DNA from: a virus
Taxonomy: Duplodnaviria > Heunggongvirae > Uroviricota > Caudoviricetes
Strand: one strand, 5' to 3'
DNA: 17,035 bases
Virus record (IMG/VR): IMGVR_UViG_2671180417_000010
Span: 1 to 17,035 of that record
Shown: one piece after another, positions 1-15,722 of the stretch
How positions within the stretch are numbered: the stretch's first letter is position 1
How the letters are laid out: every line of letters begins with the position of its first letter
The notes under the pieces: model-generated
Database searches by the model: none
What the model was told of the DNA's origin: nothing
Seen by the model: only the letters and a program-made list of their open reading frames with translations
Position numbers and translations under genes: made by a program

Positions 1-152
1 TACAACCCCGGACGGCAGAGCTCGCATGCTTTTTGGTTCCGGCTCCACCAGTATTCTGCCGTTATGGAATGCTGACATACATAACTTATTTCACATAACA
101 CGTTGATTTAATTAAATAATTTTCACCGCAAAAAGTGCCAAAAATCGCAAAA

Positions 153-185
153 TGACTACACCAGTGACTACACCGTTCGGTGCAC
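153..185. repeat. Left copy of terminal direct repeat (TGACTACACC x2 followed by GTTCGGTGCAC); candidate att junction
   Basis: 153..185 TGACTACACCAGTGACTACACCGTTCGGTGCAC against 15491..15523 TGACTACACCAGTGACTACACCGATCGTTGCAC: 31 of 33 identical, same orientation, about 15.3 kb apart. Confidence 0.4.
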
Positions 186-190
186 TGTAT

Positions 191-208
191 GAAACAACGT
201 GGAACAAA
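191..208 (+). promoter_or_regulatory. Two 10-bp-phased GAACAA-type units (GAAACAACGTGGAACAA) next to the left terminal repeat
   Basis: Same unit as the arrays at 7651..7680, 13911..13930, 14143..14188 and 15535..15554. Confidence 0.4.
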
Positions 209-286
209 TAGACACAAGAAATATACAGGCGGATCATCTTTCCAGGGGGAAGCGCACCAATTCATGAGGGGCGTTAATGTCGATAT

Positions 287-546
287 GGGGATCCCCACCT
301 ACCGGAATTTTTTTCCGGTTAAACGTTAATCAGGCTGGTGGGCTTTACCTGTTCGGTAGGTGTTATGATTATCGTAATACCTTTCCCCCAATGGGGTAAA
401 AGCATCAACCGTAACGAAAGTCGTTATGGTTGCCACTGATACCCCAAATTTGGGTATCACGAGTAAGCCCCAAAATCTGGGTGTTACTCTTACTACCCAA
501 ACTACGGGTAGTTTCCGTAGTTTCATGGTCGAGTTGCAGATCTGCA
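287..546. repeat. Cluster of palindromes in the non-coding left end: GGGGATCCCC (287..296), hairpin ACCGGAA-T5-TTCCGGT (301..319), CCCCAATGGGG (385..396), ACCCCAAATTTGGGT (442..455), CCCAAAATCTGGG (468..481), CCCAAACTACGGG (496..508), TTGCAGATCTGCAA (533..546)
   Basis: Read directly. Four related CCCAAA-N-TTTGGG half-site pairs spaced about 26-57 bp apart. The overlapping ORFs (86..298, 326..556, 426..686) have non-protein-like composition. Confidence 0.45.
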
Positions 547-804
547 ACTCCCCCATTAACCACAGGCGAATTTCCGCCTTCGGTCATTCCTTAATCATCT
601 GCGTAATCATAATGATTATTCAGCAAGCGCAATTTTGCGCTTTGCTTAAAGTTCAGCGAGTTACCGCGCCGACTTCCTCAAATTGAGGTTTCCGAAAATA
701 TCAGCGGGTTAGCGATTAAGCTGACCATTAATTAAACTGCGAAAATGTCGTAGTTGTGAGGGGTGTAGCCAACCCATTTTTGGGCCGTCGGGAATATCAA
801 CCAG

Positions 805-1086
805 TTACCGCCGCAACCGCTCCGGCTTCTTCCAGTGGTACGTTATTTTCTCCTTCTCCCGATACATCTCCACGCGGCGACGGTAGGCCAGCAACTCAAG
901 AACTCTGGTTCGTATGTTGCGCATATCCACGCCATTAAGTTCTATACCATCACGGCGCATCACCTCAGCAACAACACGCGCATAGTTTTCGGCTGTCACG
1001 CTGTCCGGCAGCGTGGCCTGTTCGTCAGCCTGCTGGCTGATTCCGGCAACGCGGCGGATTAATCCCGTTATTTCGGCTTCTGTCAT
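805..1086 (-). CDS. Hypothetical protein (93 aa) immediately downstream of terL
   Basis: ATG at 1084..1086 preceded by GAGGT. Starts 14 nt after the terL stop. Protein-like charged/amphipathic composition. No recognisable motif. Confidence 0.45.
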   Translation of the reverse strand: MTEAEITGLIRRVAGISQQADEQATLPDSVTAENYARVVAEVMRRDGIELNGVDMRNIRTRVLELLAYRRRVEMYREKEKITYHWKKPERLRR

Positions 1087-1099
1087 GCTGCTGACCTCA

Positions 1100-2761
1100 T
1101 TACACCCCGCTAAATTCTTCCAGTTTCTGGCGGTGGCTGTCGCTTATATCAAAAGCAAAATCCTCATGCTCTGCCTGGAATGTACCAAACGCCATCAGCG
1201 CCGCCACGCTCGGGTCTATCTTGTTCGGTGATTTTTTCTTGTTCGGCTTGATATTGGCGTTCGCGTCACTCTGCATCACGACGTTACTCATCGACCAGGA
1301 CAACACCGGATCGCCACGATGCACAATCACCCTGCGGTTAACAAAAACTTCGAACGATTTCGCCGCCGGACTGAATCTGAGGTAGGTTTGCGGGAACGGC
1401 TCCACCTCAAAACCTGCCCCCTGTAATTGCGTTCTGAGATGCGTGGCGTTCCACGTATCAAAGCCCACCAGCCTGATATTAAATTTCTCCGCGTCCTGCA
1501 TGATGTCATCTCTGATCCGGTCGTAATCAATGCAGTCGCCAGGCGTTGTGCGTATCCAGCCTGCTTTAGCCCACTGACGATAGATGGCGCGGTTTTTATT
1601 GGCGGGGTTCTGTAGCTGGAACTCCGGCAGATAATGACGGGAAACCAGCATAATGGTTTTACCTACCGGAAAGGCATAGCACACGCTGGAAATATCGCTT
1701 GTGGATGATAAATCCAGCCCCGCGTAACACTCCTGGCCGTGTAAATCTTCCTCTGTGAACGTTCCGGCACACTCAGCCCATGCGCCGTTACCCATCCACG
1801 GGGTAGCCCCCTGGCACCAGATATTAAATCGCTTTGTCATCATCTCCACCCACTGCGACGGAATACCCCGCGCTTTCTGGATGGTTGAGGCCAGTTTTTC
1901 ACGATCCACGGAAACATCAATATTAGGGTTCGCCTTTATCCACATCGCCGGATCATCAACCTCGTTTTCGTCGTCCAGTTCGTAAATCAGTACAAAAATT
2001 GAATCGTTGACCTCTTCGCCGTCCAGGATCTGGCAGCAATAATCATAGTGCTGCTTACAGGCTGAAACGACGTTACTGCCTGATGTGGTAATAGCAAATA
2101 ACAGCCCTTCGGGACGTGCGCCCATCCCCAGCTCAAGCGCGGAATAAACGCCGTTATCGGGGTGCAAGTGGTATTCGTCCACGATGGAAAGGCTGGGGTT
2201 TGTTCCCTCGATGGTTGCCGCTTTTGCTGCCAGCGGCTTTAACAGGCTGTTGCTTTTCGGGTGTATCACCTTATGCGCCTGAATATTCACCCGCCTGCGT
2301 AACGGTCGGGATAAAAGGCACATCTGACGCGCATCATCAAAGACGATCCGCGCCTGGTCACGGCTCACCGCTGCGGTGTAGATATCCTGCTGACCGTTCT
2401 CCATAATCAGAAACCAGTTAGCCAGAATCGCGGCGGTCGTTGATTTCGCATTTTTGCGCGGCACTTCGATAAAGGCGCTCGTATATTTGCGCCGTCCGGT
2501 GGCCTTAACCTTAAAGCCGAGAATGCACGCAAAGGCGAACTGCTGCCACGGCTCCAGCTCAATGGGTCTGCCACGCATCGGCCCTTTTACGTGCGGGCAC
2601 ACCCTGGAAAAGGCAATAAACCGATCCACAACCTCACGATCGAACGTGTAAAGGGGGCTTTTAAGGTCCGAAAAGTACCGTTTAACGGCCTGTTTCAGCC
2701 GTTTACAGGCCGGAATTTTGCCCGTTTTTACGTCTTCTGCGTACTTATTCCAGGCGGTCAA
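1100..2761 (-). CDS. terL: Terminase large subunit (HK97-type)
   Basis: 553-aa ORF. The ORF-track start at 2761 is a TTG preceded by GAGGA; the next in-frame Met is residue 62. N-terminus MTAWNKYAEDVKTGKIPACKRLKQAVKRYF and overall length are typical of phage large terminases. Overlaps terS by 17 nt. Confidence 0.85.
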   Translation of the reverse strand: MTAWNKYAEDVKTGKIPACKRLKQAVKRYFSDLKSPLYTFDREVVDRFIAFSRVCPHVKGPMRGRPIELEPWQQFAFACILGFKVKATGRRKYTSAFIEVPRKNAKSTTAAILANWFLIMENGQQDIYTAAVSRDQARIVFDDARQMCLLSRPLRRRVNIQAHKVIHPKSNSLLKPLAAKAATIEGTNPSLSIVDEYHLHPDNGVYSALELGMGARPEGLLFAITTSGSNVVSACKQHYDYCCQILDGEEVNDSIFVLIYELDDENEVDDPAMWIKANPNIDVSVDREKLASTIQKARGIPSQWVEMMTKRFNIWCQGATPWMGNGAWAECAGTFTEEDLHGQECYAGLDLSSTSDISSVCYAFPVGKTIMLVSRHYLPEFQLQNPANKNRAIYRQWAKAGWIRTTPGDCIDYDRIRDDIMQDAEKFNIRLVGFDTWNATHLRTQLQGAGFEVEPFPQTYLRFSPAAKSFEVFVNRRVIVHRGDPVLSWSMSNVVMQSDANANIKPNKKKSPNKIDPSVAALMAFGTFQAEHEDFAFDISDSHRQKLEEFSGV

Positions 2762-3101
2762 GCTCGTCCTCTTCTTCTGTTTCCGGTGGATTTTTACGGC
2801 GGCTTATCGGGTCAAAACCGAGCAAGGAGGCCATTTTTATCATCACTCTTTCCGCGTCGGATTTCGCGCTTAATGCGGGGTTTCTGCTCTCTCCGCCCTG
2901 ACTGTTAACAATGCTGAACCCGCGCGCCGCAAGGTCTGCGACGGCTTTCCGGTATATCGAGTAATTGACGCAATACAGTTCCAGATTGCTCCAGTCGGCG
3001 GGAGTCAGGTCACCCCGTTCCGCAAGCTGCCGCGATTTTTCCCGCCACTGCTTCACGGCGATATCATCCAGGTAGGCGGGGGCTTTCGGTGGTCTTGCCA
3101 T
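2745..3101 (-). CDS. terS: Terminase small subunit (P27-family-like)
   Basis: 118 aa, ATG at 3099..3101. Sequence LDDIAVKQWREKSRQLAERGDLTPADWSNLELYCVNYSIYRKAVADL...LLGFDPISRRK matches the conserved pattern of P27-type small terminases. Sits directly upstream of and overlapping terL. Confidence 0.8.
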   Translation of the reverse strand: MARPPKAPAYLDDIAVKQWREKSRQLAERGDLTPADWSNLELYCVNYSIYRKAVADLAARGFSIVNSQGGESRNPALSAKSDAERVMIKMASLLGFDPISRRKNPPETEEEDELDRLE

Positions 3102-3389
3102 ACTTATTTTTTCGCCAGATTATTTTTCAAAAAATTCCCGTGCATAAAAATTTGAGGAGGCGGTCGGTGCCCGGCGGGGTCGGGTTTGTCCTGAAAACGC
3201 CCCCCACCCCGTCATACAGCCTCATCAGCGATTGCGGAAACATTCCATAACCTCGCGGTCACGGTCGGTTAATCGCTTCGCTGTGATGCGTTCTGCGCGT
3301 CCTGACGCTTTATCTTTATGCCCTGTTTCCTGTGTCTTCATGCGTCACGCTGCCTTATAAGTCCACGGATAAGGCGGTTTTGTTCCCGC
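3102..3389. other. HNH-terS intergenic region; candidate cos site
   Basis: 288-bp non-coding gap with a GC-rich segment (GGAGGCGGTCGGTGCCCGGCGGGGTCGGG) and repeated GGTCGG/CGGTC motifs. In HK97-type cos phages the cohesive-end site lies between the HNH gene and terS. The exact cos position is not determinable from sequence. Confidence 0.3.
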
Positions 3390-3830
3390 TCATTCATCAG
3401 CGTCATACATCCAGTTATTGCGGTTAGCGGCCCGTTCTTCCTCTTCACGAAATCCACCTGCGGCACGCTTGCTTTTTGTTGCCGGATCAAGCCATTTCGT
3501 TTTCTGGTTATGACACGCCTGACACAATGGTTGATGGTTCCATTCGGGCCAGAAGAGAACATCATCACCGCCATTAATCGGGATAATGTGATCCACCACC
3601 ACGGCGGGCGTATATATCCCCTTCTCAAGGCATCGCACGCATAACGGGTTTTTACTCAGATACATGGCGCGGTATTTGTCCCACTGTCTGGAGTACCCAC
3701 GCGCGCGGCGGTGTCCTCGTCTGGCATCCTCTGCACGCCATGCCGCCCGCCTGTGCTCCTCACACTTGCCGGATTTAACGCGCCTGTTACAGCCTGGTTC
3801 TGTGCATCGTCTTAATGGTTGCCACGGCAT
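3390..3830 (-). CDS. HNH endonuclease (packaging-associated)
   Basis: 146 aa. N-terminal Cys cluster (CTEPGCNRRVKSGKCEEH) and HNH core VDHIIPINGGDDV...CQACHNQKT. Start ATG overlaps the connector stop (TAATG-type junction). Confidence 0.85.
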   Translation of the reverse strand: MPWQPLRRCTEPGCNRRVKSGKCEEHRRAAWRAEDARRGHRRARGYSRQWDKYRAMYLSKNPLCVRCLEKGIYTPAVVVDHIIPINGGDDVLFWPEWNHQPLCQACHNQKTKWLDPATKSKRAAGGFREEEERAANRNNWMYDADE

Positions 3831-4126
3831 CAGTACACCCCCACATCACGGTAAGCCGTCCAGAGCGCGCCAATCGTCATGGGTACGCGCGTTTTTGCGT
3901 TATCCGCTACCAGCTGGCGATTCTCGTACAGGTGAGCGATAAACATCATGCAGCCAATCTTTATGGCTGGCGTGAACTCCAGCCCGTCATCAAAGCGCCT
4001 GCCTATATGTATCTGGCACGCCTCAAGCGATGCGGCAATGTATCCGCTGATTAACTGGTCTTCCTCGTCGCCATCGATGCGGCAATGGAGTTTCACTTCT
4101 TCCAGGGTGATAAGTTCTTCTGTCAT
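3830..4126 (-). CDS. Head-tail connector protein (phage gp6-like)
   Basis: 98 aa. N-terminus MTEELITLEEVKLHCRIDGDEEDQLISGYIAASLEACQ matches the characteristic gp6-like opening (LxxAKxHLRIDxDxDDxLI). ATGA overlap with the upstream gene. Confidence 0.7.
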   Translation of the reverse strand: MTEELITLEEVKLHCRIDGDEEDQLISGYIAASLEACQIHIGRRFDDGLEFTPAIKIGCMMFIAHLYENRQLVADNAKTRVPMTIGALWTAYRDVGVY

Positions 4127-4461
4127 TTTTCCGCGCCCTCACGACAAAGAATTTCAAGGCGTGTCCTGGCGGCATCCGGCAGCGGCTGCCCGATGATATT
4201 CAGTACACGCCCCGCCAGCGGCCCCGTATTGACCTTTATCCGGCTGGTGGCGTTGATGTCCTTCCTGTAGCGTATCCATATCCTTACCGTTCCAGTCGCC
4301 AGTTCTGCACCCGATGAAATGGCCTCCTTGCTGCTGATCATGTTCACGCTTGCCCAGAGTGTGTGACCGTCCACCCACGTTTCGAGTATTTCGCCGGTTA
4401 TATCCCTGGTCTGTTTCAGGGTCTGAATCGTTACCCTGTCACGCAGTCGCCCTATGTTCAT
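4123..4461 (-). CDS. Head closure / head-tail joining protein
   Basis: Start set at ATG 4459..4461 (MNIGRLRDRVTIQ...), which forms an ATGA overlap with the portal stop and has GAGGGAG upstream. The ORF-track start at 4503 would overlap portal by 46 nt. Motifs RDRVTIQ, GEILETW, WASV..., IRYRKDI, LEILCRE resemble the head-tail joining family. Confidence 0.7.
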   Translation of the reverse strand: MNIGRLRDRVTIQTLKQTRDITGEILETWVDGHTLWASVNMISSKEAISSGAELATGTVRIWIRYRKDINATSRIKVNTGPLAGRVLNIIGQPLPDAARTRLEILCREGAEK

Positions 4462-5669
4462 TCCGGTTTTTCTCCCTCGCTGATTTTTACTTCCTGTTTC
4501 CATGCCTGGCTGAACTCATCACCACCATCACGCGGGGACAGCCCTTCACGTTCGCGGGCTTCGTTCGGGCACATAACGCCGGATTTGATGCCGCGTTCAT
4601 AGGTGGCAAAGCGTTCGCCAGGTGTGGCCCGTAACAGGTCCGCGCTGTCAAACTCCACCTGATACCGGATACCAGGTACAGGCGAGGCCACCAGCAGGGC
4701 GTTTTTTATCTGCTGCTCAAAGTTCGCCAGCCACGGGCGCATCGTCATGGTGAGAAATGCGCGGCTTGCCTCGCTGAAATTGCTGTAGGTGCTGTTGCTG
4801 TATTCCTGCAAAAAAATCGGCGAGACGTTGAACATTCGGGCGATGTCTTCAATGGTGAAGCGACGGGAGGCCAGCCATTCAGCATCCTGATTACTCATGC
4901 CCAGCTGCTGATAGCTCATACCCCCTTCAAGGATGGGCGTTTTTCCGGCGTTTCTGGCCCCTTTGTAGCGTTCCAGTGCGGCTAATGCCTGTTTACCCTT
5001 CACGCCGTCCAGCCACTCGCCTGACGTGATAACCCCTGCCGCCATCATGCCATCACGCATCACGCTCGCGCCGTGGCGTTGTTGGGCCAGCCCAAGCCCC
5101 AGCGATTCGCGGCAGATGGTTACAGGTGAGCGCCCCATAAAACCGTCATCCGTGGAGTAACGAAGGTGGAGAACCTCCCACGGTAAATAGTTGCGGGTGT
5201 TTCCGGTGTAGGCGTCAGTGATGCAGTAGCGCCAGTTATGCTCACCTGTCTGCTCCACGTTCACCGACTGCGGCGGGTAAGGATGTAAAGCCACCGGAAA
5301 ACCATCACGCCCCCACTGAATCACCGCATAAGCATTACCGTTTAACAGGCAGTGGCGGATCATCATTCGCTTAAACTGGTAGGGGGTTTGCCATGCGTTC
5401 GGGCGCTCGTTGAGGATGTGATCGACCGGATGAGAATCAAGCCACTCTCGGGCCTCCTTCCCCTTCTCATTGCGTACCAGGTACAGGTAACACGGCATGG
5501 TAGCCACCGCCTCAGAGATGACCGTGACGGCGTTCATGACGGCGGGCAGTGATTCCGCTGTCCCCGATGATACGTACTCACCCGCCCCCGTGTTCGATGT
5601 GCCAGCCAGCGCCATAAACTCATCAAGCGTCATGCTGCGCTGCTCTTTTTTTCTTCTGAAAGGCCACAT
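4458..5669 (-). CDS. Portal protein (HK97 family-like)
   Basis: 403 aa. ATG at 5667..5669 preceded by GGGGG, one nt after the protease stop. Size and sequence character typical of HK97-type portals; acidic C-terminus. Confidence 0.8.
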   Translation of the reverse strand: MWPFRRKKEQRSMTLDEFMALAGTSNTGAGEYVSSGTAESLPAVMNAVTVISEAVATMPCYLYLVRNEKGKEAREWLDSHPVDHILNERPNAWQTPYQFKRMMIRHCLLNGNAYAVIQWGRDGFPVALHPYPPQSVNVEQTGEHNWRYCITDAYTGNTRNYLPWEVLHLRYSTDDGFMGRSPVTICRESLGLGLAQQRHGASVMRDGMMAAGVITSGEWLDGVKGKQALAALERYKGARNAGKTPILEGGMSYQQLGMSNQDAEWLASRRFTIEDIARMFNVSPIFLQEYSNSTYSNFSEASRAFLTMTMRPWLANFEQQIKNALLVASPVPGIRYQVEFDSADLLRATPGERFATYERGIKSGVMCPNEAREREGLSPRDGGDEFSQAWKQEVKISEGEKPE

Positions 5670-5670
5670 A

Positions 5671-6228
5671 TCACACCCCCGCTAAATCCGCCCACCAGCG
5701 GCGATTATCCGCACGAGGCATTTTTTCAGGGTGCTGCTCATACAGGGAACGGCGGGCCAGCTCCACGCCGGAATCAGGGTAAGCCGGTACGGATGTCACG
5801 GTAATTTCGTACAGTTCCGCTATCAGTACAGTACGCACACATGGATCGACTGTCGTATCCCATACATCCTTACGGGAACGAAAGCCAAAGCTCATGCCCG
5901 AGATGTCACCACGTTTAACCAGTTCGATAACGTCCCGCCCTGTGCTGGTATCCGGTGGGATCAGTTCAAAACGTAACCCTGTGTCATCCTCTTCCAGTCT
6001 CAGCGTACCGGAACGGGTGCGCCCCAGTAACATGCTGTGGTCATGCTCATACAGGCCGCGAACGTCATTACCCACCGCAAGCCATTCAGTAAACGCCCCC
6101 CGCTGGAATTTTTCGTAAAATTCGCCCCATAACAGTTCTGAAAGGTTATCCCAGCGAACAACGTAGCCCGTAAGCGTGTTGCTGCCGCTGGTGGTGATTT
6201 CCGATGACCGGATTTCCATACTCATCAT
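5671..6228 (-). CDS. Prohead maturation protease (HK97 / peptidase S78-like)
   Basis: 185 aa. ATG at 6226..6228 with AGGTGA upstream. Motifs GYVVRWD, YEHDHSMLLGRT and GDISGMSFGF resemble the HK97 prohead protease His/Ser region. Confidence 0.75.
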   Translation of the reverse strand: MMSMEIRSSEITTSGSNTLTGYVVRWDNLSELLWGEFYEKFQRGAFTEWLAVGNDVRGLYEHDHSMLLGRTRSGTLRLEEDDTGLRFELIPPDTSTGRDVIELVKRGDISGMSFGFRSRKDVWDTTVDPCVRTVLIAELYEITVTSVPAYPDSGVELARRSLYEQHPEKMPRADNRRWWADLAGV

Positions 6229-6282
6229 AATTTTTTCACCTGTAAAACAGAGAAGGGGCTTTTTAGCCCCTTCGGTGTGCTG

Positions 6283-7440
6283 TTAATCGTCGTCCTGCGG
6301 CAGTTCCAGAATCTTTATAGCGTTCGAATCCACCACGCCACCGCCTAAATATTTCTGCGTGAAAATTTTGATAAAGCCCGGCTCTGTCAGGTTGTCCGGT
6401 CTGGTGCGCACGCCCGTTTCATGATCAACGATGTAATAACCGCGTTTGAAGTCACCCAGGGCGATAACGTTATCCGGCATAAATTCCAGATACTCCACCG
6501 GAAGCCCCAGCAACGTATCAGGATCACCCGCCTGTAAACGGTCGCGCCAGATGTAATCGCCGTTCGCGTTCTTCACCTTCTGAAGTTTTGCCGCCGTCGT
6601 GGAGTTAACCACCCAGACCGCGTTTTTGCGGTATTTTTTACGTAATGCAAATTTCAGGTCGATCAGCGGGTCCGCAGATGTCCACGCCAGAGATTCGGAA
6701 GGTTTAATTACCTGCAACGTACCAAAATCACGCTCTTTGTCGTTCTTCTCTGCACGGGGTACGGATAAAAAACCTTTTGCTTTTTTGTCACCGTCGCCCA
6801 CAACCAGATCGCTTTCTTCGGTTTCCGTGAAGGTGTCGCCAATCTCACCCGTCAGCCATGAAAGGATGTCCACATCGGAAAAATCCACGATTTCCTGTGT
6901 GGTGCGCGGGTACGCATAGACCGGATACAGCTTAATGCTCACCTCGTTAATCTGCGGGGTGCTGGTCTGTTCGCGTGCCTTACCCTCTTCACCGTGGTTA
7001 ACGGTCGCACCGCCAGCGGAAACAAGCTGCTTAAACTCGTTGCTGCTGATTTTCTTCACGGTACAGATGCGGCGCATGGTGGATTCATCCGCCAGCATTC
7101 GCATGATTTCGGTGTTCAGTTCAGGGATAACGGTATAACCACCATCAGCGGGAACGCCTGTACTTAATGCGCGGGTTTCACCGGTCAGAATGTAGTTGCG
7201 TAGTTCTGCGGGGTCAGTGGTCTGGCTGCTTTTACCTGGCTTGCTGCGCTCTTCGTCTGCAATGGCTTCAAGGCGGGAAATGTCTTTATCGAGGGATTCA
7301 GCTTTAGCGCGTAATTCGTCAAATTTTGCGCCCTCAGCATCGTTAAGACTGCGGTTTTCTTTTTCCGCGTTCTCCAGCATGTCGCGCATCTGATTTTTAA
7401 TGGCGGTTTTCTGCTGGCGTAATTCGATTATTCTCGGCAT
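6283..7440 (-). CDS. Major capsid protein (HK97 fold) with N-terminal delta/scaffold-like domain
   Basis: The ORF-track start at 7488 is a GTG lying inside an upstream hairpin. The first ATG is at 7438..7440 (MPRIIELRQQ...) with AGGA 8 nt upstream. N-terminal coiled-coil (IIELRQQKTAIKNQMRDMLENAEKENRSLNDAEGAKFDELRAKAESLDKDISRLEAI) plus C-terminal LLGLPVEYLEFMPD region typical of HK97-type capsid proteins. Confidence 0.8.
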   Translation of the reverse strand: MPRIIELRQQKTAIKNQMRDMLENAEKENRSLNDAEGAKFDELRAKAESLDKDISRLEAIADEERSKPGKSSQTTDPAELRNYILTGETRALSTGVPADGGYTVIPELNTEIMRMLADESTMRRICTVKKISSNEFKQLVSAGGATVNHGEEGKAREQTSTPQINEVSIKLYPVYAYPRTTQEIVDFSDVDILSWLTGEIGDTFTETEESDLVVGDGDKKAKGFLSVPRAEKNDKERDFGTLQVIKPSESLAWTSADPLIDLKFALRKKYRKNAVWVVNSTTAAKLQKVKNANGDYIWRDRLQAGDPDTLLGLPVEYLEFMPDNVIALGDFKRGYYIVDHETGVRTRPDNLTEPGFIKIFTQKYLGGGVVDSNAIKILELPQDDD

Positions 7441-7477
7441 AAAAAAAGTCCTGGGATTAAGTAAGGAACTCCAGGAC
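7441..7477 (-). promoter_or_regulatory. Hairpin plus U7 immediately upstream of the capsid start codon; the stem includes the capsid SD
   Basis: Minus strand reads GTCCTGG-(16 nt loop)-CCAGGAC-TTTTTTT-ATG. The 3' stem half CCAGGAC contains the AGGA Shine-Dalgarno. Seen directly. Confidence 0.45.
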
Positions 7478-7531
7478 GCGGCAAACACTCAACCGTTTTT
7501 CATAAGGAAATCAGCAATCGCACCGATCGTT

Positions 7532-7577
7532 TTCCCGCCTGGTAATGAATATTGGCGAGCACATTAACAGGCGGGAA
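7532..7577. promoter_or_regulatory. 16-bp imperfect inverted repeat (TTCCCGCCTGGTAATG / CATTAACAGGCGGGAA) with 14-bp spacer in the capsid-operon leader
   Basis: Arms at 7532..7547 and 7562..7577, one mismatch. Either a dimeric-regulator operator or a long RNA stem in the late leader. Confidence 0.45.
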
Positions 7578-7650
7578 AGTGGCCCCAGCGTCCTGGCACC
7601 ACGGGCGAGAATACTCATGATTCAGTTCGGGTAAAATATGCCGATCCTGT

Positions 7651-7680
7651 CAGTGAACAACGTGGAACAACCACGAACAA
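7651..7680 (+). promoter_or_regulatory. Three perfect 10-bp-phased GAACAA units (cagtGAACAA cgtgGAACAA ccacGAACAA); candidate activator-binding array for the capsid/late operon
   Basis: Read directly. Located just downstream (in the transcription direction) of the early-operon terminator and about 210 bp upstream of the capsid start. Confidence 0.5.
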
Positions 7681-7689
7681 ATAATTTAC

Positions 7690-7720
7690 AAAAAATGACA
7701 AAAAGCCGGATTTCTCCGGC
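7690..7720 (-). terminator. Rho-independent terminator after the PerC-like gene
   Basis: Minus strand reads GCCGGAGAAATCCGGC (6-bp GC stem, 4-nt loop) followed by TTTTTGTCATTTTTTGT. Hairpin 7705..7720 starts 8 nt after the stop at 7728. Confidence 0.65.
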
Positions 7721-14235: not shown

Positions 14236-15465
14236 TTATTTTCTTCTGGCTACTGGTAGCGTGGTTACGTTTTCATGTGTTCCCGCCAGTATCCCTAACC
14301 GCTCCGTCCACATATCCAGCGCATTGCGTTTAGCATCCAGATAACGGGAATGATTATAAACTCGCTGCATTCCTGGCATCTGGTGGCCTGTAAGCTGCTC
14401 CACGACATGCGGATCAACGCCTAAATCGTTCAGCATGGTTGTAAAGGTGCGCCGGATGTCATGCAGTGACCAGTGAGGATGATTAAGCCTCCTGTGCGCT
14501 AATCTTCCATACTGCGATACGCTGGCCTCCTGTTTCACTTCCCCCAGCAATAAGCCCGTGTGCCTGTTCTGCTCCACCAGCTGCGTGACGAACGGCAGGA
14601 TCGCTTCCGGTATGGGCCGGAATATTGCGACCTTCGTTTTGCTGTGCTCCTTCGGAACGGTCCATAGCATTTCCGTAAAATCCCACTCCCCGATCTCCGA
14701 TAACCTCAGTTCTACCGTTCTGGCTCCGAAGACAATCAGGAGGCGGATTAACGCGACGTAGTAAGGGGAGAATATTTTTTTGTCCAGTGCCTGCAATAAT
14801 TCGCCAAGTTCTTTGTTACTTAAGACACGTTCGCTTATATCCGGTTTTTTCCCAACGTCCGCCACGTTCAGATCGTCCAGAACGTTGCTGATTGCATAGC
14901 GCCGCCTACGGCAGAACTTAAGCGCCTGTTTGCACGCCTGTAGCACGAATCCGGCAGTAACAGGCGTTCGCTTTGCCACCTGGTCAAAACAGGCCAGCCA
15001 GTGCCGTAGCTCGCATTTATCCAGCGGCATAGCACCAATCTGCTGTATTACGTGATTATTAAGTCGCCTTTTCAGGGCGATATAATCCACGCGGTTTTCC
15101 TTTACGTAATACTCAAGCCAGTAGGTGAGCGCATCGCCAACCGTTACCGGCTTTAACGCTTCCTGTACGGTGTAATTAAGCTCATGACGTGGATTTTTCC
15201 CCTCTGCCAGCCATGCGCGACACTGGGCGGCTTTTTCCCTGGCTGATTTCAGGCTCAGATCAGGATAACTTCCCAGCTTAATGCGTTCGGGTCGTGTCTC
15301 CCTTCCCGTTCCGGCCCTGTATGTGAAATACCAGGTCAATTTCCCTGATGTTAAATATTTCACGCTCAGGTTTCCGCCATCACTATAAAACGTGTTTTTC
15401 TCCGCTGGCTTACCATGAAGTTTCCTTAGCAAGGTATCGCTCAGTTTGTTCATTGCTCTGCTCAC
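14236..15465 (-). CDS. int: Site-specific tyrosine integrase (P4 / CP4-type)
   Basis: 409 aa. The ORF-track start at 15465 is GTG with GGGGG 6 nt upstream; ATG alternative at 15453. Catalytic-domain motifs include WSLHDIRRTF (HxxR) and C-terminal GHQM...RVYNHSRYL (Tyr region). N-terminal region resembles an integrase arm-binding domain. Confidence 0.9.
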   Translation of the reverse strand: MSRAMNKLSDTLLRKLHGKPAEKNTFYSDGGNLSVKYLTSGKLTWYFTYRAGTGRETRPERIKLGSYPDLSLKSAREKAAQCRAWLAEGKNPRHELNYTVQEALKPVTVGDALTYWLEYYVKENRVDYIALKRRLNNHVIQQIGAMPLDKCELRHWLACFDQVAKRTPVTAGFVLQACKQALKFCRRRRYAISNVLDDLNVADVGKKPDISERVLSNKELGELLQALDKKIFSPYYVALIRLLIVFGARTVELRLSEIGEWDFTEMLWTVPKEHSKTKVAIFRPIPEAILPFVTQLVEQNRHTGLLLGEVKQEASVSQYGRLAHRRLNHPHWSLHDIRRTFTTMLNDLGVDPHVVEQLTGHQMPGMQRVYNHSRYLDAKRNALDMWTERLGILAGTHENVTTLPVARRK

Positions 15466-15490
15466 GTTTTACCCCCTCTTTACGAAAAAG

Positions 15491-15523
15491 TGACTACACC
15501 AGTGACTACACCGATCGTTGCAC
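15491..15523. repeat. Right copy of terminal direct repeat (TGACTACACC x2 + GATCGTTGCAC), 26 bp upstream of the int start; candidate att junction
   Basis: See 153..185; 31 of 33 identical. Confidence 0.4.
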
Positions 15524-15534
15524 AAAGGGCTACA

Positions 15535-15554
15535 ACGTGAAACAAGCTGGAACA
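15535..15554 (+). promoter_or_regulatory. Two 10-bp-phased GAACAA-type units (GTGAAACAA GCTGGAACAA) 70-90 bp upstream of int
   Basis: Read directly. Same orientation relative to its gene as the array at 7651..7680. Confidence 0.45.
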
Positions 15555-15722
15555 AGGAAAATCACAAATCTGTTGATAATCAAAAACATAATGCACAGCC
15601 TGAAACATTATGAAACAGCAAAAAACACTAAATGATAAAATGCTGTTATTGATTCACGGCCTGGCTTAACGATAACCAGACCGAGTTCCGGTACCAGAAC
15701 AGGTCGAAGTAATACCCGCACA

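Follow-up and report, generated by a model that had tools for sequence, protein, structure and literature searches.

Where does a phage satellite that builds its own capsid cut the DNA it packages? The question is raised by the interval between the genes for an HNH endonuclease and the small terminase subunit (TerS) in a 17,035-nt stretch of a Caudoviricetes record (IMG/VR IMGVR_UViG_2671180417_000010; the whole stretch is called the window here). The initial annotation placed the cohesive-end site (cos) in the 288 bp separating these genes. Judged from sequence comparison, this stretch very probably does hold the packaging cut site, with the signal confined to only ~50 bp rather than the whole 288 bp.

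The window contains a capsid-forming PICI (cf-PICI) of the EcCIEDL933 type, ~15.4 kb long. Members of this family are described as islands of ~10-18 kb bounded by att repeats (Alqurainy et al., 10.1101/2022.09.08.507074; He et al., 10.1101/2025.02.11.637232), and 23-nt direct repeats enclose the element here (Table 1). Homology with the O157:H7 islands runs across ~97-15641 of the window, at 94-97% nucleotide identity over ~80% of it, while the remaining ~17-20%, consisting of accessory and regulatory segments, differs from EcCIEDL933 and the O157:H7 islands. The size of ~15.4 kb and the order capsid-protease-portal-connectors followed by hnh-terS-terL are common to EcCIEDL933 and the window. 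An integrase and the regulation/replication (primase) modules are present, and the island's own capsid, protease, portal, adaptor, head closure, HNH, TerS and TerL proteins all lie far above the Pfam and PHROG thresholds (8/8), with the morphogenetic genes first and hnh-terS-terL after them. Neither the window ORFs nor the RefSeq genes of the O157:H7 island that is 94% identical include a tail module or lysis genes. The gene order read by the initial annotation (capsid, protease, portal, head closure, connector, HNH, gap, TerS, TerL, a small ORF and the element end) agrees with the ORFs and their Pfam/PHROG matches, and had already been published.

Helper induction and transfer in small capsids of the island's own, joined to helper tails, are experimentally known for EcCIEDL933 and KpCIDSM30104 only (Alqurainy et al.; He et al.), and the island in the window would be expected to behave alike. 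Packaging through cos has also been described for cf-PICIs: the DNA re-anneals into concatemers, KpCIDSM30104 is reported to have cohesive ends, packaging relies exclusively on island proteins, and genetics reveals mutually exclusive packaging of island and helper (Alqurainy et al.; He et al.). None of the papers found in a literature search, these two included, gives the position or sequence of a cf-PICI cos. A cos in the HNH-terS interval is an ordinary, expected feature of this known family, newly localised more precisely.

Table 1. Features of the island in the window, with positions counted from the first nucleotide of the window.
Feature	Position	Strand	Match or remark
Direct repeat, 23 nt, TGACTACACCAGTGACTACACCG	153-175 and 15491-15513	.	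Probable att or integrase-binding repeat; bounds the ~15.4-kb element
ORF after TerL, 93 aa	805-1086	-	phrog_1561
Large terminase (TerL)	1100-2761	-	PF03354 and PF20441, phrog_9
Small terminase (TerS), P27 family	2745-3101	-	PF05119 at 1.3e-23, phrog_83
True intergenic DNA, proposed cos region	3102-3224 (123 nt)	-	Relatives' assemblies open in the homologous interval
Block B, GGGCACCGACCGCCTCCTCAAATTTTTATGCACGGGAATTTTTTGAAAAATAAT	3119-3172	-	Best-conserved non-coding stretch; proposed cos core (cleavage and terminase-binding side)
Candidate TerS recognition element, CACGGGAATTTTTTG	3128-3142	-	G/C triplet then T-tract; conserved as CGCACGGnnATTTTTTT in 31 species
Predicted cleavage/cohesive-end interval, CACCGACCGCCTCCTCAAATTTTTA	3145-3170	-	Crossovers; rough centre of the hole in the vB_KppS-Ant contig
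Hypervariable spacer between blocks A and B	3173-3187	-	Least conserved segment of the core
Block A, GGGGTGGGGGGCGTTTTCAGGAC	3188-3210	-	Conserved G-run and TTTCAGGAC, last-packaged side; G-run length polymorphic
Small gene, phrog_3173 family	~3225-3406	-	Start overlaps HNH stop; full-length match to phrog_3173, E = 6e-37
Pieces of the small gene in the window	19 aa ending 3338; 38 aa 3225-3341	-	Start and stop overlap in ATGA
HNH endonuclease, packaging accessory nuclease, HK97 gp74 homologue	3390-3830	-	PF01844 and phrog_144
Adaptor	3830-4126	-	PF05135
Head closure	4123-4503	-	PF05521
Portal	4458-5669	-	PF04860
Protease	5671-6228	-	PF04586
Capsid	6283-7488	-	PF05065
ORF, 714 aa	9105-11249		Aligns 91-95% with the O157:H7 island gene annotated DUF927 primase-like protein
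ORF, 409 aa	14236-15465		Aligns 91-95% with the O157:H7 island gene annotated tyrosine integrase

The placement of cos was originally argued from HK97, and this premise is borne out: the phage has the order terS-terL-portal-protease-capsid-gp6-gp7, and the gene for its HNH protein gp74 lies at the opposite end of the map, with 319 nt between it and the cos end, which in turn precedes terS by 49 nt. According to papers citing Kala et al. (2014), gp74 stimulates cos cleavage. The island likewise has the arrangement HNH-cos-terS-terL, with the HNH gene adjoining terS-terL. Its HNH protein is homologous to gp74 (39% identity over 85 aa, E = 2e-19) and has a relative in the PDB (5h0m, an HNH endonuclease), and its TerL is of the HK97 type, PF03354 and PF20441 being found in both the island protein and HK97 gp2. 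The small subunits, however, belong to different families, P27 (phrog_83/PF05119) in the island and phrog_5601 in HK97, and BLASTP detects no homology between island TerS and HK97 gp1 (E = 2.4). A search for a PDB relative of the island TerS found none.

What lies between HNH and terS? The 288-bp gap is real in that 3102-3389 contains no intact ORF of at least 50 aa, but it is not purely a gap, since its HNH-proximal ~165 nt are a frameshifted conserved gene. Of 46 distinct relatives, 45 have this phrog_3173 gene in intact form, with 54-60 aa (RefSeq annotation WP_000174068.1 in O157:H7). Alignment with these relatives reveals a 1-nt deletion in the window (TGG to TG at 3339/3338), unique among the 46 distinct sequences, which splits the gene into the two pieces of Table 1 and sets this copy apart from EcCIEDL933. 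Many otherwise complete islands lack the small gene, which may therefore be dispensable. The interval was also said to be GC-rich; it is not, its GC content of 51.7% lying between those of the window (51.2%) and the packaging module (53.6%), although its composition is patchy (G/C-rich at ~3155-3215, A/T-rich at 3102-3150). The GGTCGG/CGGTC repeats proposed as a cos signal are locally enriched, three of the six GGTCGG copies in the window falling inside the interval where ~0.1 per 288 bp is expected. One of these is inside the small gene and one inside the hypervariable spacer, and of the non-coding pair, one copy recurs in just two sequences and the other in just one. The repeats were thus rejected as a conserved signal, being unconserved across 31 species.

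The gap was also compared with related islands, as the initial annotation had suggested. The footprint set comprises 31 species, from Aeromonas to Xenorhabdus, with TerS identity down to ~68% and neutral proxies at 0.64-0.67. Across it, block B has a mean conservation of 0.88, compared with 0.83 for terS coding sequence and 0.64 for terS third codon positions, and it is retained even in islands without the small gene. Block A is kept in Escherichia-type and Klebsiella-type islands and in most of the 31 species. Between the two blocks, the spacer has a mean majority fraction of 0.67, close to that of terS third codon positions (0.64). In one relative, from Shigella flexneri, both block B and the start of terS are missing.

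Physical breaks in the DNA of relatives fall at the same place. KpCIDSM30104, deposited as vB_KppS-Ant from Klebsiella pneumoniae DSM 30104 / ATCC 13883 (LR881103, a linear contig of 16,548 bp), stands alone among close relatives in having an assembly of DNase-protected particle DNA; it was deposited in the belief that it was a filamentous phage, and MF417951 was named as its closest relative. Its TerS is 83-84% identical to that of the window, and the two islands have in common the module order and the layout of block A, spacer and block B upstream of terS. The Klebsiella island differs in spacer sequence, in having an intact small gene of 50-54 aa, and in the ORF after terL (765 aa, as against 93 aa in the window). 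The contig, obtained from a DNase-treated lysate through a Nextera XT library and SPAdes assembly with no re-orientation step described, has unit length without terminal overlap or redundancy, and both its ends lie in one ~70-nt interval. It runs terS-terL-...-int-...-capsid-...-HNH, without a break between terL and int, the accessory region and att included. In the strain chromosome (L292), its final and initial 200 nt are separated by exactly 69 nt. The right end of the contig stops exactly at the last base of block A; the hole spans all of block B and is roughly centred on the predicted cleavage interval, with 37 nt before and 32 nt after the junction between AAA and TTT. A second record, the chimeric Klebsiella phage P12620-1 (PQ569648), has a cf-PICI of ~15.9 kb at its end, and this island too is opened in that interval, with 137 nt missing. 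Both phage-preparation assemblies, each Klebsiella-type and unit-length for the island, are circular permutations opened between HNH and terS; as indirect evidence, their ends mark a hole of 69-137 nt, not the positions of nicks.

This permutation bears on the proposal that the integrated map is the packaged genome opened at att rather than at cos. Such an opening makes terS-terL follow HNH on the integrated map, as the vB_KppS-Ant contig bears out, but leaves the reversal of the head module unexplained. The island has capsid-protease-portal where HK97 has portal-protease-capsid, and Phage_HCP then Phage_connect_1 where HK97 has connect_1 then HCP. This reversed order, already remarked in the cf-PICI literature (Alqurainy et al.; He et al.), is a real reordering beyond the choice of att or cos as opening point.

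Furthermore, recombination concentrates at the same site. In each of the four clear natural recombinants between island lineages the crossover falls inside 3170-3145, and both directions occur: the parent switches from W to B in L054, and from B to W in L011, L024 and L022. The latter three may share one recombination event, leaving perhaps two independent crossovers only, and elsewhere there are identical tracts of greater length. Contig ends in public data are less telling. In a metagenome scan with TerS, two of ~38 true upstream contig ends lay within 125 nt of terS (~0.5 expected), an excess so weak that it was given no weight. Protein-based scans of IMG/VR found only two contig ends in the interval, at 3166 (L091) and 3390, both in draft isolate genomes; forks in the assembly at boundaries between alleles are their likelier origin, and they were rejected as a proxy for termini. 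Pattern scans of IMG/VR returned stored chunks, so that locus ends differ from contig ends, and were set aside as uninformative.

The contig breaks, the conservation of block B and the clustering of crossovers are independent of one another, and together they support a cos between HNH and terS. With considerable confidence, cos would lie in 3102-3224, with block B (3119-3172) as its core and cleavage, or the cohesive ends, at ~3145-3170.

Could the island be using the helper's site? The cos of the helper HK106 is identical to that of HK97 over -40 to +49, and the island core is dissimilar to it. In local alignment with the HK97 cos the core scores 21, against a mean of 20.1 (sd 3.4) for dinucleotide shuffles, 376 of 1000 shuffles scoring as high (z = 0.27 for the window and -0.16 for the consensus). 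The comparison with HK97-like cos regions thus gave no significant similarity, and homology was rejected, the HK97 site being kept as an analogy only. With unrelated TerS proteins and the published mutual exclusivity of packaging, this supports the earlier suggestion of an island-specific cos. By eye, the two sites are alike in a G-run, ~35-40 nt, GACCGCC..AAA, a T-rich stretch, and a C/G triplet with a T-tract. As this likeness is non-significant, a 3' overhang and a nick at AAA/TTT rest on analogy. The best guess from it puts the top-strand nick near the AAA/TTT junction (between 3151 and 3150), and the staggered nicks may fall inside CCACCCGCCCCCTCAAATTTT. Similarly, CACGGGAATTTTTTG, with CACGGGAATTTTTT as the candidate stretch for TerS contact, can be likened to the TerS site of HK97, given in the citing literature as CTAACCCGATTTTTT at +15 to +29. 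Both systems would probably follow a common logic, in which TerS binds directly downstream of the nick and TerL is aided by HNH.

It is conceivable that blocks A and B serve mainly to regulate terS-terL, as a late promoter or activator site, in anti-termination or as a translational leader, and that cos lies elsewhere or overlaps them in part. The core is directly upstream of terS, its A/T tracts and G-run could be sites of protein binding or bending, and conservation alone is silent on which function is kept, so that block B could also, or instead, be regulatory. However, no sigma-70-like promoter or terminator was found on the coding strand of the intergenic region, an Rfam search of 3102-3224 gave no match, and its folding is nothing unusual (z = -0.73, DNA fold). 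The chain of overlapping ORFs from HNH through the small gene, and then terS, suggests read-through transcription, and neither the breaks of particle-derived contigs nor the crossovers at the core would be explained by regulation, which makes this reading improbable. A decayed coding region without any cis role, in a defective island copy, is more improbable still. The small gene is frameshifted here alone among 46 distinct sequences, and the Shigella flexneri copy offers an example of loss, but decay accounts for 3225-3389 only: the other 123 nt are intact and agree with the consensus core, all large packaging genes are full length, and the small gene is missing from many otherwise complete islands.

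Headful packaging from a pac site in or near terS, with no unique cohesive-end site in the gap, has precedents in the many satellites (pac SaPIs) with their own TerS and pac site. Against it stand the pairing of HNH with an HK97-type TerL, a hallmark of HNH-assisted cos systems, the re-annealing of cf-PICI DNA into concatemers via cohesive ends, and the unit-length vB_KppS-Ant contig, which ends in one ~70-nt interval without terminal redundancy; there is very little to be expected of this alternative. Least probable of all is a cos at some other place in the island, such as the att-proximal 287-660, which the initial annotation gave as an alternative location. A 19-nt near-perfect palindrome at 522-559 draws attention to this region, which is non-coding or poorly coding (ORF 326-556 has no family matches). 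Yet it holds the single inverted repeat found in 1-1100 and is poorly conserved among O157:H7 islands (75-90%, with rearrangements), and the vB_KppS-Ant contig is continuous from terL through att to int, so that no physical end exists there in that relative.

With cos placed in block B, packaging could proceed as follows. Excision at att and replication would yield island circles or concatemers. The P27-family TerS would bind the terS-proximal part of block B (CACGGGAATTTTTTGAAAAAT), and the HK97-type TerL with the gp74-like HNH would make staggered nicks in the adjacent G/C-rich CCGCCTCCTCAAA. Packaging would then run from the terS end to att, through int, replication and head genes, and on to HNH, the small gene and block A, up to the next cos; the packaged molecule would thus be a circular permutation of the integrated map. 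Because the HK106/HK97-type cos and TerS of the helper are unrelated to those of the island, each terminase would package its own DNA only.

A bolder combination, put forward tentatively and doubtful as a whole, is a bipartite cos in which invariant blocks are separated by a spacer of ~15 nt on the last-packaged side of the cut, with the spacer setting specificity and the core acting as a joint for module shuffling. The spacer, possibly together with the phrog_3173 protein, could set lineage-specific termination or HNH specificity, and co-resident cf-PICIs would then avoid cross-packaging. Annealing or recombination at the cohesive-end core would swap the 'head + HNH' and 'terminase' halves, with the crossovers at 3170-3145 as its traces; on this reading cos would combine two roles, that of packaging signal and that of the family's main module-shuffling joint.

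HNH-dependent cos packaging of satellites reportedly has a counterpart in staphylococci, Quiles-Puchalt and colleagues being said to have described in 2014 the cos phages phi12 and phiSLT with cos-type SaPIs such as SaPIbov5. There, as in the window, a satellite is packaged through cos by a machine of HNH, TerS and TerL. Cos-type SaPIs, however, copy the helper cos and use the helper terminase, whereas the island in the window has a cos, terminase and HNH of its own and would thus not compete for the helper machinery.

The general picture of how the family works is unchanged, and an expected detail has been filled in. That detail matters because cos is the sole cis-acting element deciding what enters the capsids of cf-PICIs, islands for which transfer between species on borrowed tails has been reported. 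A defined core of ~50 bp would provide a direct experimental handle, for deletion and transplantation as well as for a minimal packageable cargo in cf-PICI-based delivery, and would make it possible to distinguish functional from dead islands in genome sequences, the Shigella flexneri copy being an example of the latter. Its location would also explain permuted or chimeric particle-derived assemblies that have been mislabelled as small phages, and may account for the reassortment observed among HNH and TerS alleles.

The element in the window is an EcCIEDL933-type capsid-forming PICI (cf-PICI). Every sequence-testable feature of a proteobacterial cf-PICI was found in it, and O157:H7 E. coli islands share 94-97% DNA identity over about 80% of the window's length. 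Those islands lie between phoQ and roxA; the window's insertion site is a different one, since its flanks have no match to theirs. The 23-nt direct repeat that bounds some 15.4 kb is likely the att core or an integrase arm site. ORF calls with Pfam and PHROG scans put all major ORFs on the minus strand and reproduce the gene order and HNH-terS interval of the initial annotation. The accessory slot after terL varies strongly between islands, holding a 93-aa ORF in the window and a 765-aa ORF annotated as a "tail length tape measure protein" in KpCIDSM30104 (LR881103.1, 2036-4333).

Features of the island and of its HNH-terS core
Feature	Position	Strand	Remarks
Integrase	14236-15465		upstream of head/packaging genes
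Primase-like gene	9105-11249		upstream of head/packaging genes
Capsid	6283-7488	minus	Pfam/PHROG
Prohead protease	5671-6228	minus	Pfam/PHROG
Portal	4458-5669	minus	Pfam/PHROG
Head-closure protein	4123-4503	minus	Pfam/PHROG; Phage_HCP
Head-tail adaptor	3830-4126	minus	Pfam/PHROG; Phage_connect_1
HNH endonuclease	3390-3830	minus	Pfam/PHROG
Small phrog_3173 gene	3225-3406	minus	overlaps HNH stop; frameshifted in window
HNH-terS interval, 288 nt	3102-3389		between HNH and TerS genes
Block A	3210-3188	minus	GGGGTGGGGGGCGTTTTCAGGAC; conserved in alignments
Hypervariable spacer, ~15 nt	3187-3173	minus	alignments
Block B	3172-3119	minus	GGGCACCGACCGCCTCCTCAAATTTTTATGCACGGGAATTTTTTGAAAAATAAT; conserved in alignments
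Leader, variable	block B end to terS ATG at 3101	minus	alignments
Small terminase TerS, P27 family	2745-3101	minus	Pfam/PHROG
Large terminase TerL	1100-2761	minus	Pfam/PHROG
93-aa ORF	805-1086	minus	phrog_1561
23-nt direct repeat	153-175 and 15491-15513		TGACTACACCAGTGACTACACCG; internal tandem of TGACTACACC

The interval had been described as a GC-rich gap, with GGTCGG/CGGTC repeats, that contains the island cos. Its GC content is ordinary (51.7%; window 51.2%, packaging module 53.6%), with a G/C-rich patch adjoining an A/T-rich one. GGTCGG is locally enriched (three of the six window copies, about 0.1 expected); one copy falls within the phrog_3173 gene and one within the hypervariable spacer, and the two non-coding copies are kept in only 2 and 1 sequences among 31 species, which argues against the repeats as a signal. 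Nor is the whole interval a gap: a small conserved gene fills its HNH side, so that true intergenic DNA is confined to 3102-3224 (123 nt). Of 46 distinct relatives, 45 have the gene as an intact ORF of 54-60 aa, which starts inside the HNH end and finishes in ...ECFRNR before its stop. Its product belongs over its full length to phrog_3173 (E = 6e-37), a PHROG of unknown function, and RefSeq annotates it in O157:H7 as WP_000174068.1. In the window a 1-nt deletion (TGG to TG, 3339/3338) breaks it into 19-aa and 38-aa pieces, with an ATGA stop/start overlap from which the C-terminal part might still be translated.

The anatomy of the core was derived from alignments of Escherichia-type and Klebsiella-type islands and of 31 species (Aeromonas to Xenorhabdus), with one representative apiece. 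Read on the coding strand from the phrog_3173 stop, it comprises four segments. Across the 31 species, mean column conservation is 0.88 in block B, 0.83 in the first 150 nt of terS, 0.64 at terS third codon positions, 0.67 in the spacer and 0.65 in the leader. Block B is also kept in the islands of Xenorhabdus, Serratia fonticola, Aeromonas and Symbiopectobacterium, from which the phrog_3173 gene is absent. As judged from the alignments, conservation and persistence of this kind mark a DNA site that acts in cis. The core gave no known-RNA match in Rfam and no unusual fold (z = -0.73), and its coding strand no sigma-70-like promoter or terminator. The G-run of block A (3200-3210) differs among near-identical islands, GGGGT being followed by 5 to 8 G, a homopolymer polymorphism within an otherwise invariant block. 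A Shigella flexneri SFBU1023 island (CP182556.1) has lost about 91 nt, homologous to window ~3082-3173, between two copies of CCCCGCC. Block B and the leader are gone completely, along with part of the spacer and the first seven codons of terS; as a natural knockout of cos and terS, this island is predicted not to package its own DNA.

Where do relatives of the island open? Among phage records, TerS is matched most closely by vB_KppS-Ant (LR881103), a SPAdes assembly of particle DNA from K. pneumoniae DSM 30104 lysate treated with DNase I (Nextera XT library), described with no mention of a re-orientation step. Its authors noted >99% identity to the host chromosome and interpreted it as a filamentous phage (LR881103); DSM 30104 hosts the cf-PICI KpCIDSM30104 (He et al., 10.1101/2025.02.11.637232). 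The record, labelled a filamentous ssDNA phage or an unclassified siphovirus, is here identified as that island, and so is one of two GenBank "phage" entries that are mislabelled cf-PICIs (LR881103.1 and PQ569648.1). It is linear (16,548 bp, no terminal overlap) and runs terS-terL-...-int-...-primase-capsid-protease-portal-closure-adaptor-HNH-small ORF, the integrated map circularly permuted. Its first and last 200 nt match the chromosome of ATCC 13883 (= DSM 30104) exactly, and 69 nt of that chromosome, GAACACGAGGGCGCCAGGCACCACCCGCCCCCTCAAATTTTTTCGCACGGTGATTTTTTTGAAAATAAA, are missing between its ends. The right end is the last base of block A, and the hole is the spacer plus block B, divided by the AAA/TTT junction of block B into 37 nt on the block A side and 32 nt on the terS side. 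Libraries made by tagmentation cover the outermost few tens of bases of a linear molecule poorly, so a physical end is expected near the middle of the hole. The second entry, Klebsiella phage P12620-1 (PQ569648), is chimeric: of its 106.5 kb, the final ~15.9 kb belong to a cf-PICI that starts at the terS ATG and ends 5 nt short of the small gene stop. Compared with the closest integrated copy it lacks 137 nt, of which 79 precede and 58 follow AAA/TTT. Its junction with unrelated phage sequence falls exactly on the start codon of terS. Contig ends in IMG/VR are uninformative for termini, and a metagenome scan found two contig ends near terS where ~0.5 were expected, a weak excess.

HNH-side and TerS-side alleles reassort among Escherichia-type islands. 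With the window and island L067 as parents (124 informative sites, ~660 nt), four clear recombinants switch parent inside one ~25-nt interval of block B, 3145-3170: L054 between 3158 and 3145, and L011, L024 and L022 between 3170 and 3158 in the opposite direction, giving at least two independent crossovers. Longer identical tracts lie outside (37 nt at 3286-3249, 36 nt at 3003-2967), and tract length therefore does not explain the clustering. Two draft isolate-genome contigs also end inside the HNH-terS interval, L091 at 3166 within block B and L097 at 3390 at the HNH stop. Forks in the assembly, at points where the alleles of co-resident islands part, are the probable cause, and the L091 end fits a fork at the very allele boundary used by the crossovers; physical ends from spontaneous induction are possible.

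The contig openings, the conserved block B, the clustered crossovers and the HK97-like HNH and TerL support the placing of cos between HNH and terS, and from sequence it very probably lies within 3102-3224, the balance tipping slightly towards cutting within 3145-3170. An exact nick at AAA/TTT (3151/3150) with a 3' overhang, the best guess by analogy with HK97, is doubtful. The palindrome cluster named earlier as an alternative site is thin: a single inverted repeat was found in 1-1100, a near-perfect palindrome at 522-559 (19-nt arms, no loop; TTCATGGTCGAGTTGCAGA/TCTGCAACTCCCCCATTAA), where conservation near att is poor.

How far does the likeness to HK97 extend? The island HNH is homologous to HK97 gp74 (39% identity, E = 2e-19), which stimulates HK97 cleavage, and its TerL shares Pfam families with gp2; HNH genes generally adjoin cos and terminase genes. 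HK97 itself has its cos end 319 nt beyond gp74 and 49 nt ahead of terS; the cut produces a 3' overhang of 10 nt, and the TerS site covers 15 bp (+15 to +29). By eye the island core has a similar layout, a likeness rejected on alignment (z = 0.27; 376 of 1000 shuffles as good). Protein comparisons gave no relationship between island TerS and gp1, and no solved structural relative of it was found. Because the island differs in cos and TerS, two HK97-specific features, the 3' polarity, overhang length and AAA/TTT nick are analogy, not evidence. Island packaging probably works like HK97-type HNH-assisted cos packaging, and the most fitting description of the machine is a variant with a P27-family TerS and a cos of its own.

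The att-opened, permuted map proposed initially accounts for terS-terL following HNH, as Ant shows directly, and leaves the order within the head module unexplained. HK97 has portal-protease-capsid followed by gp6 (Phage_connect_1) and gp7 (Phage_HCP) (2056-5883), whereas the island has capsid-protease-portal, then Phage_HCP, then Phage_connect_1 (3830-7488), reversed in order with transcription direction unchanged. This reordering is real, is no product of circular permutation alone, and is already called a "different genetic organisation" in the cf-PICI literature.

After excision at att and replication, TerS would most likely bind the terS-proximal half of block B, the candidate site being the conserved CGCACGGnnATTTTTTTGAAAAT, which combines a G/C triplet with an A/T tract and is of the same kind as the site bound by HK97 TerS. 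TerL with HNH would nick both strands in the adjacent CCGCCyCCTCAAA. Packaging would then run from terS through att, int, the replication genes and the head genes, past HNH, the small gene and block A, to end at the next cos; block A and the spacer, on the last-packaged side, may serve termination.

Earlier publications already report that cf-PICIs have a cos, how their genes are ordered and that packaging is specific to the island; no cos position or sequence was found in the literature searched. Added here are a candidate cos core of ~50 bp, ~25 bp of which form a candidate interval for cleavage, the small gene, broken in the window copy, that occupies more than half of the "gap", and the recombination of island lineages at the proposed cos. 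An island-specific cos had been suggested to let the terminase discriminate its own DNA from the helper's. The published helper phage HK106 has a terS 100% DNA-identical to that of HK97 and the HK97 cos junction exact from -40 to +49; its cos and TerS are thus unrelated to the island's, which supports the suggestion and fits published mutagenesis, in which island and helper packaging are mutually exclusive.
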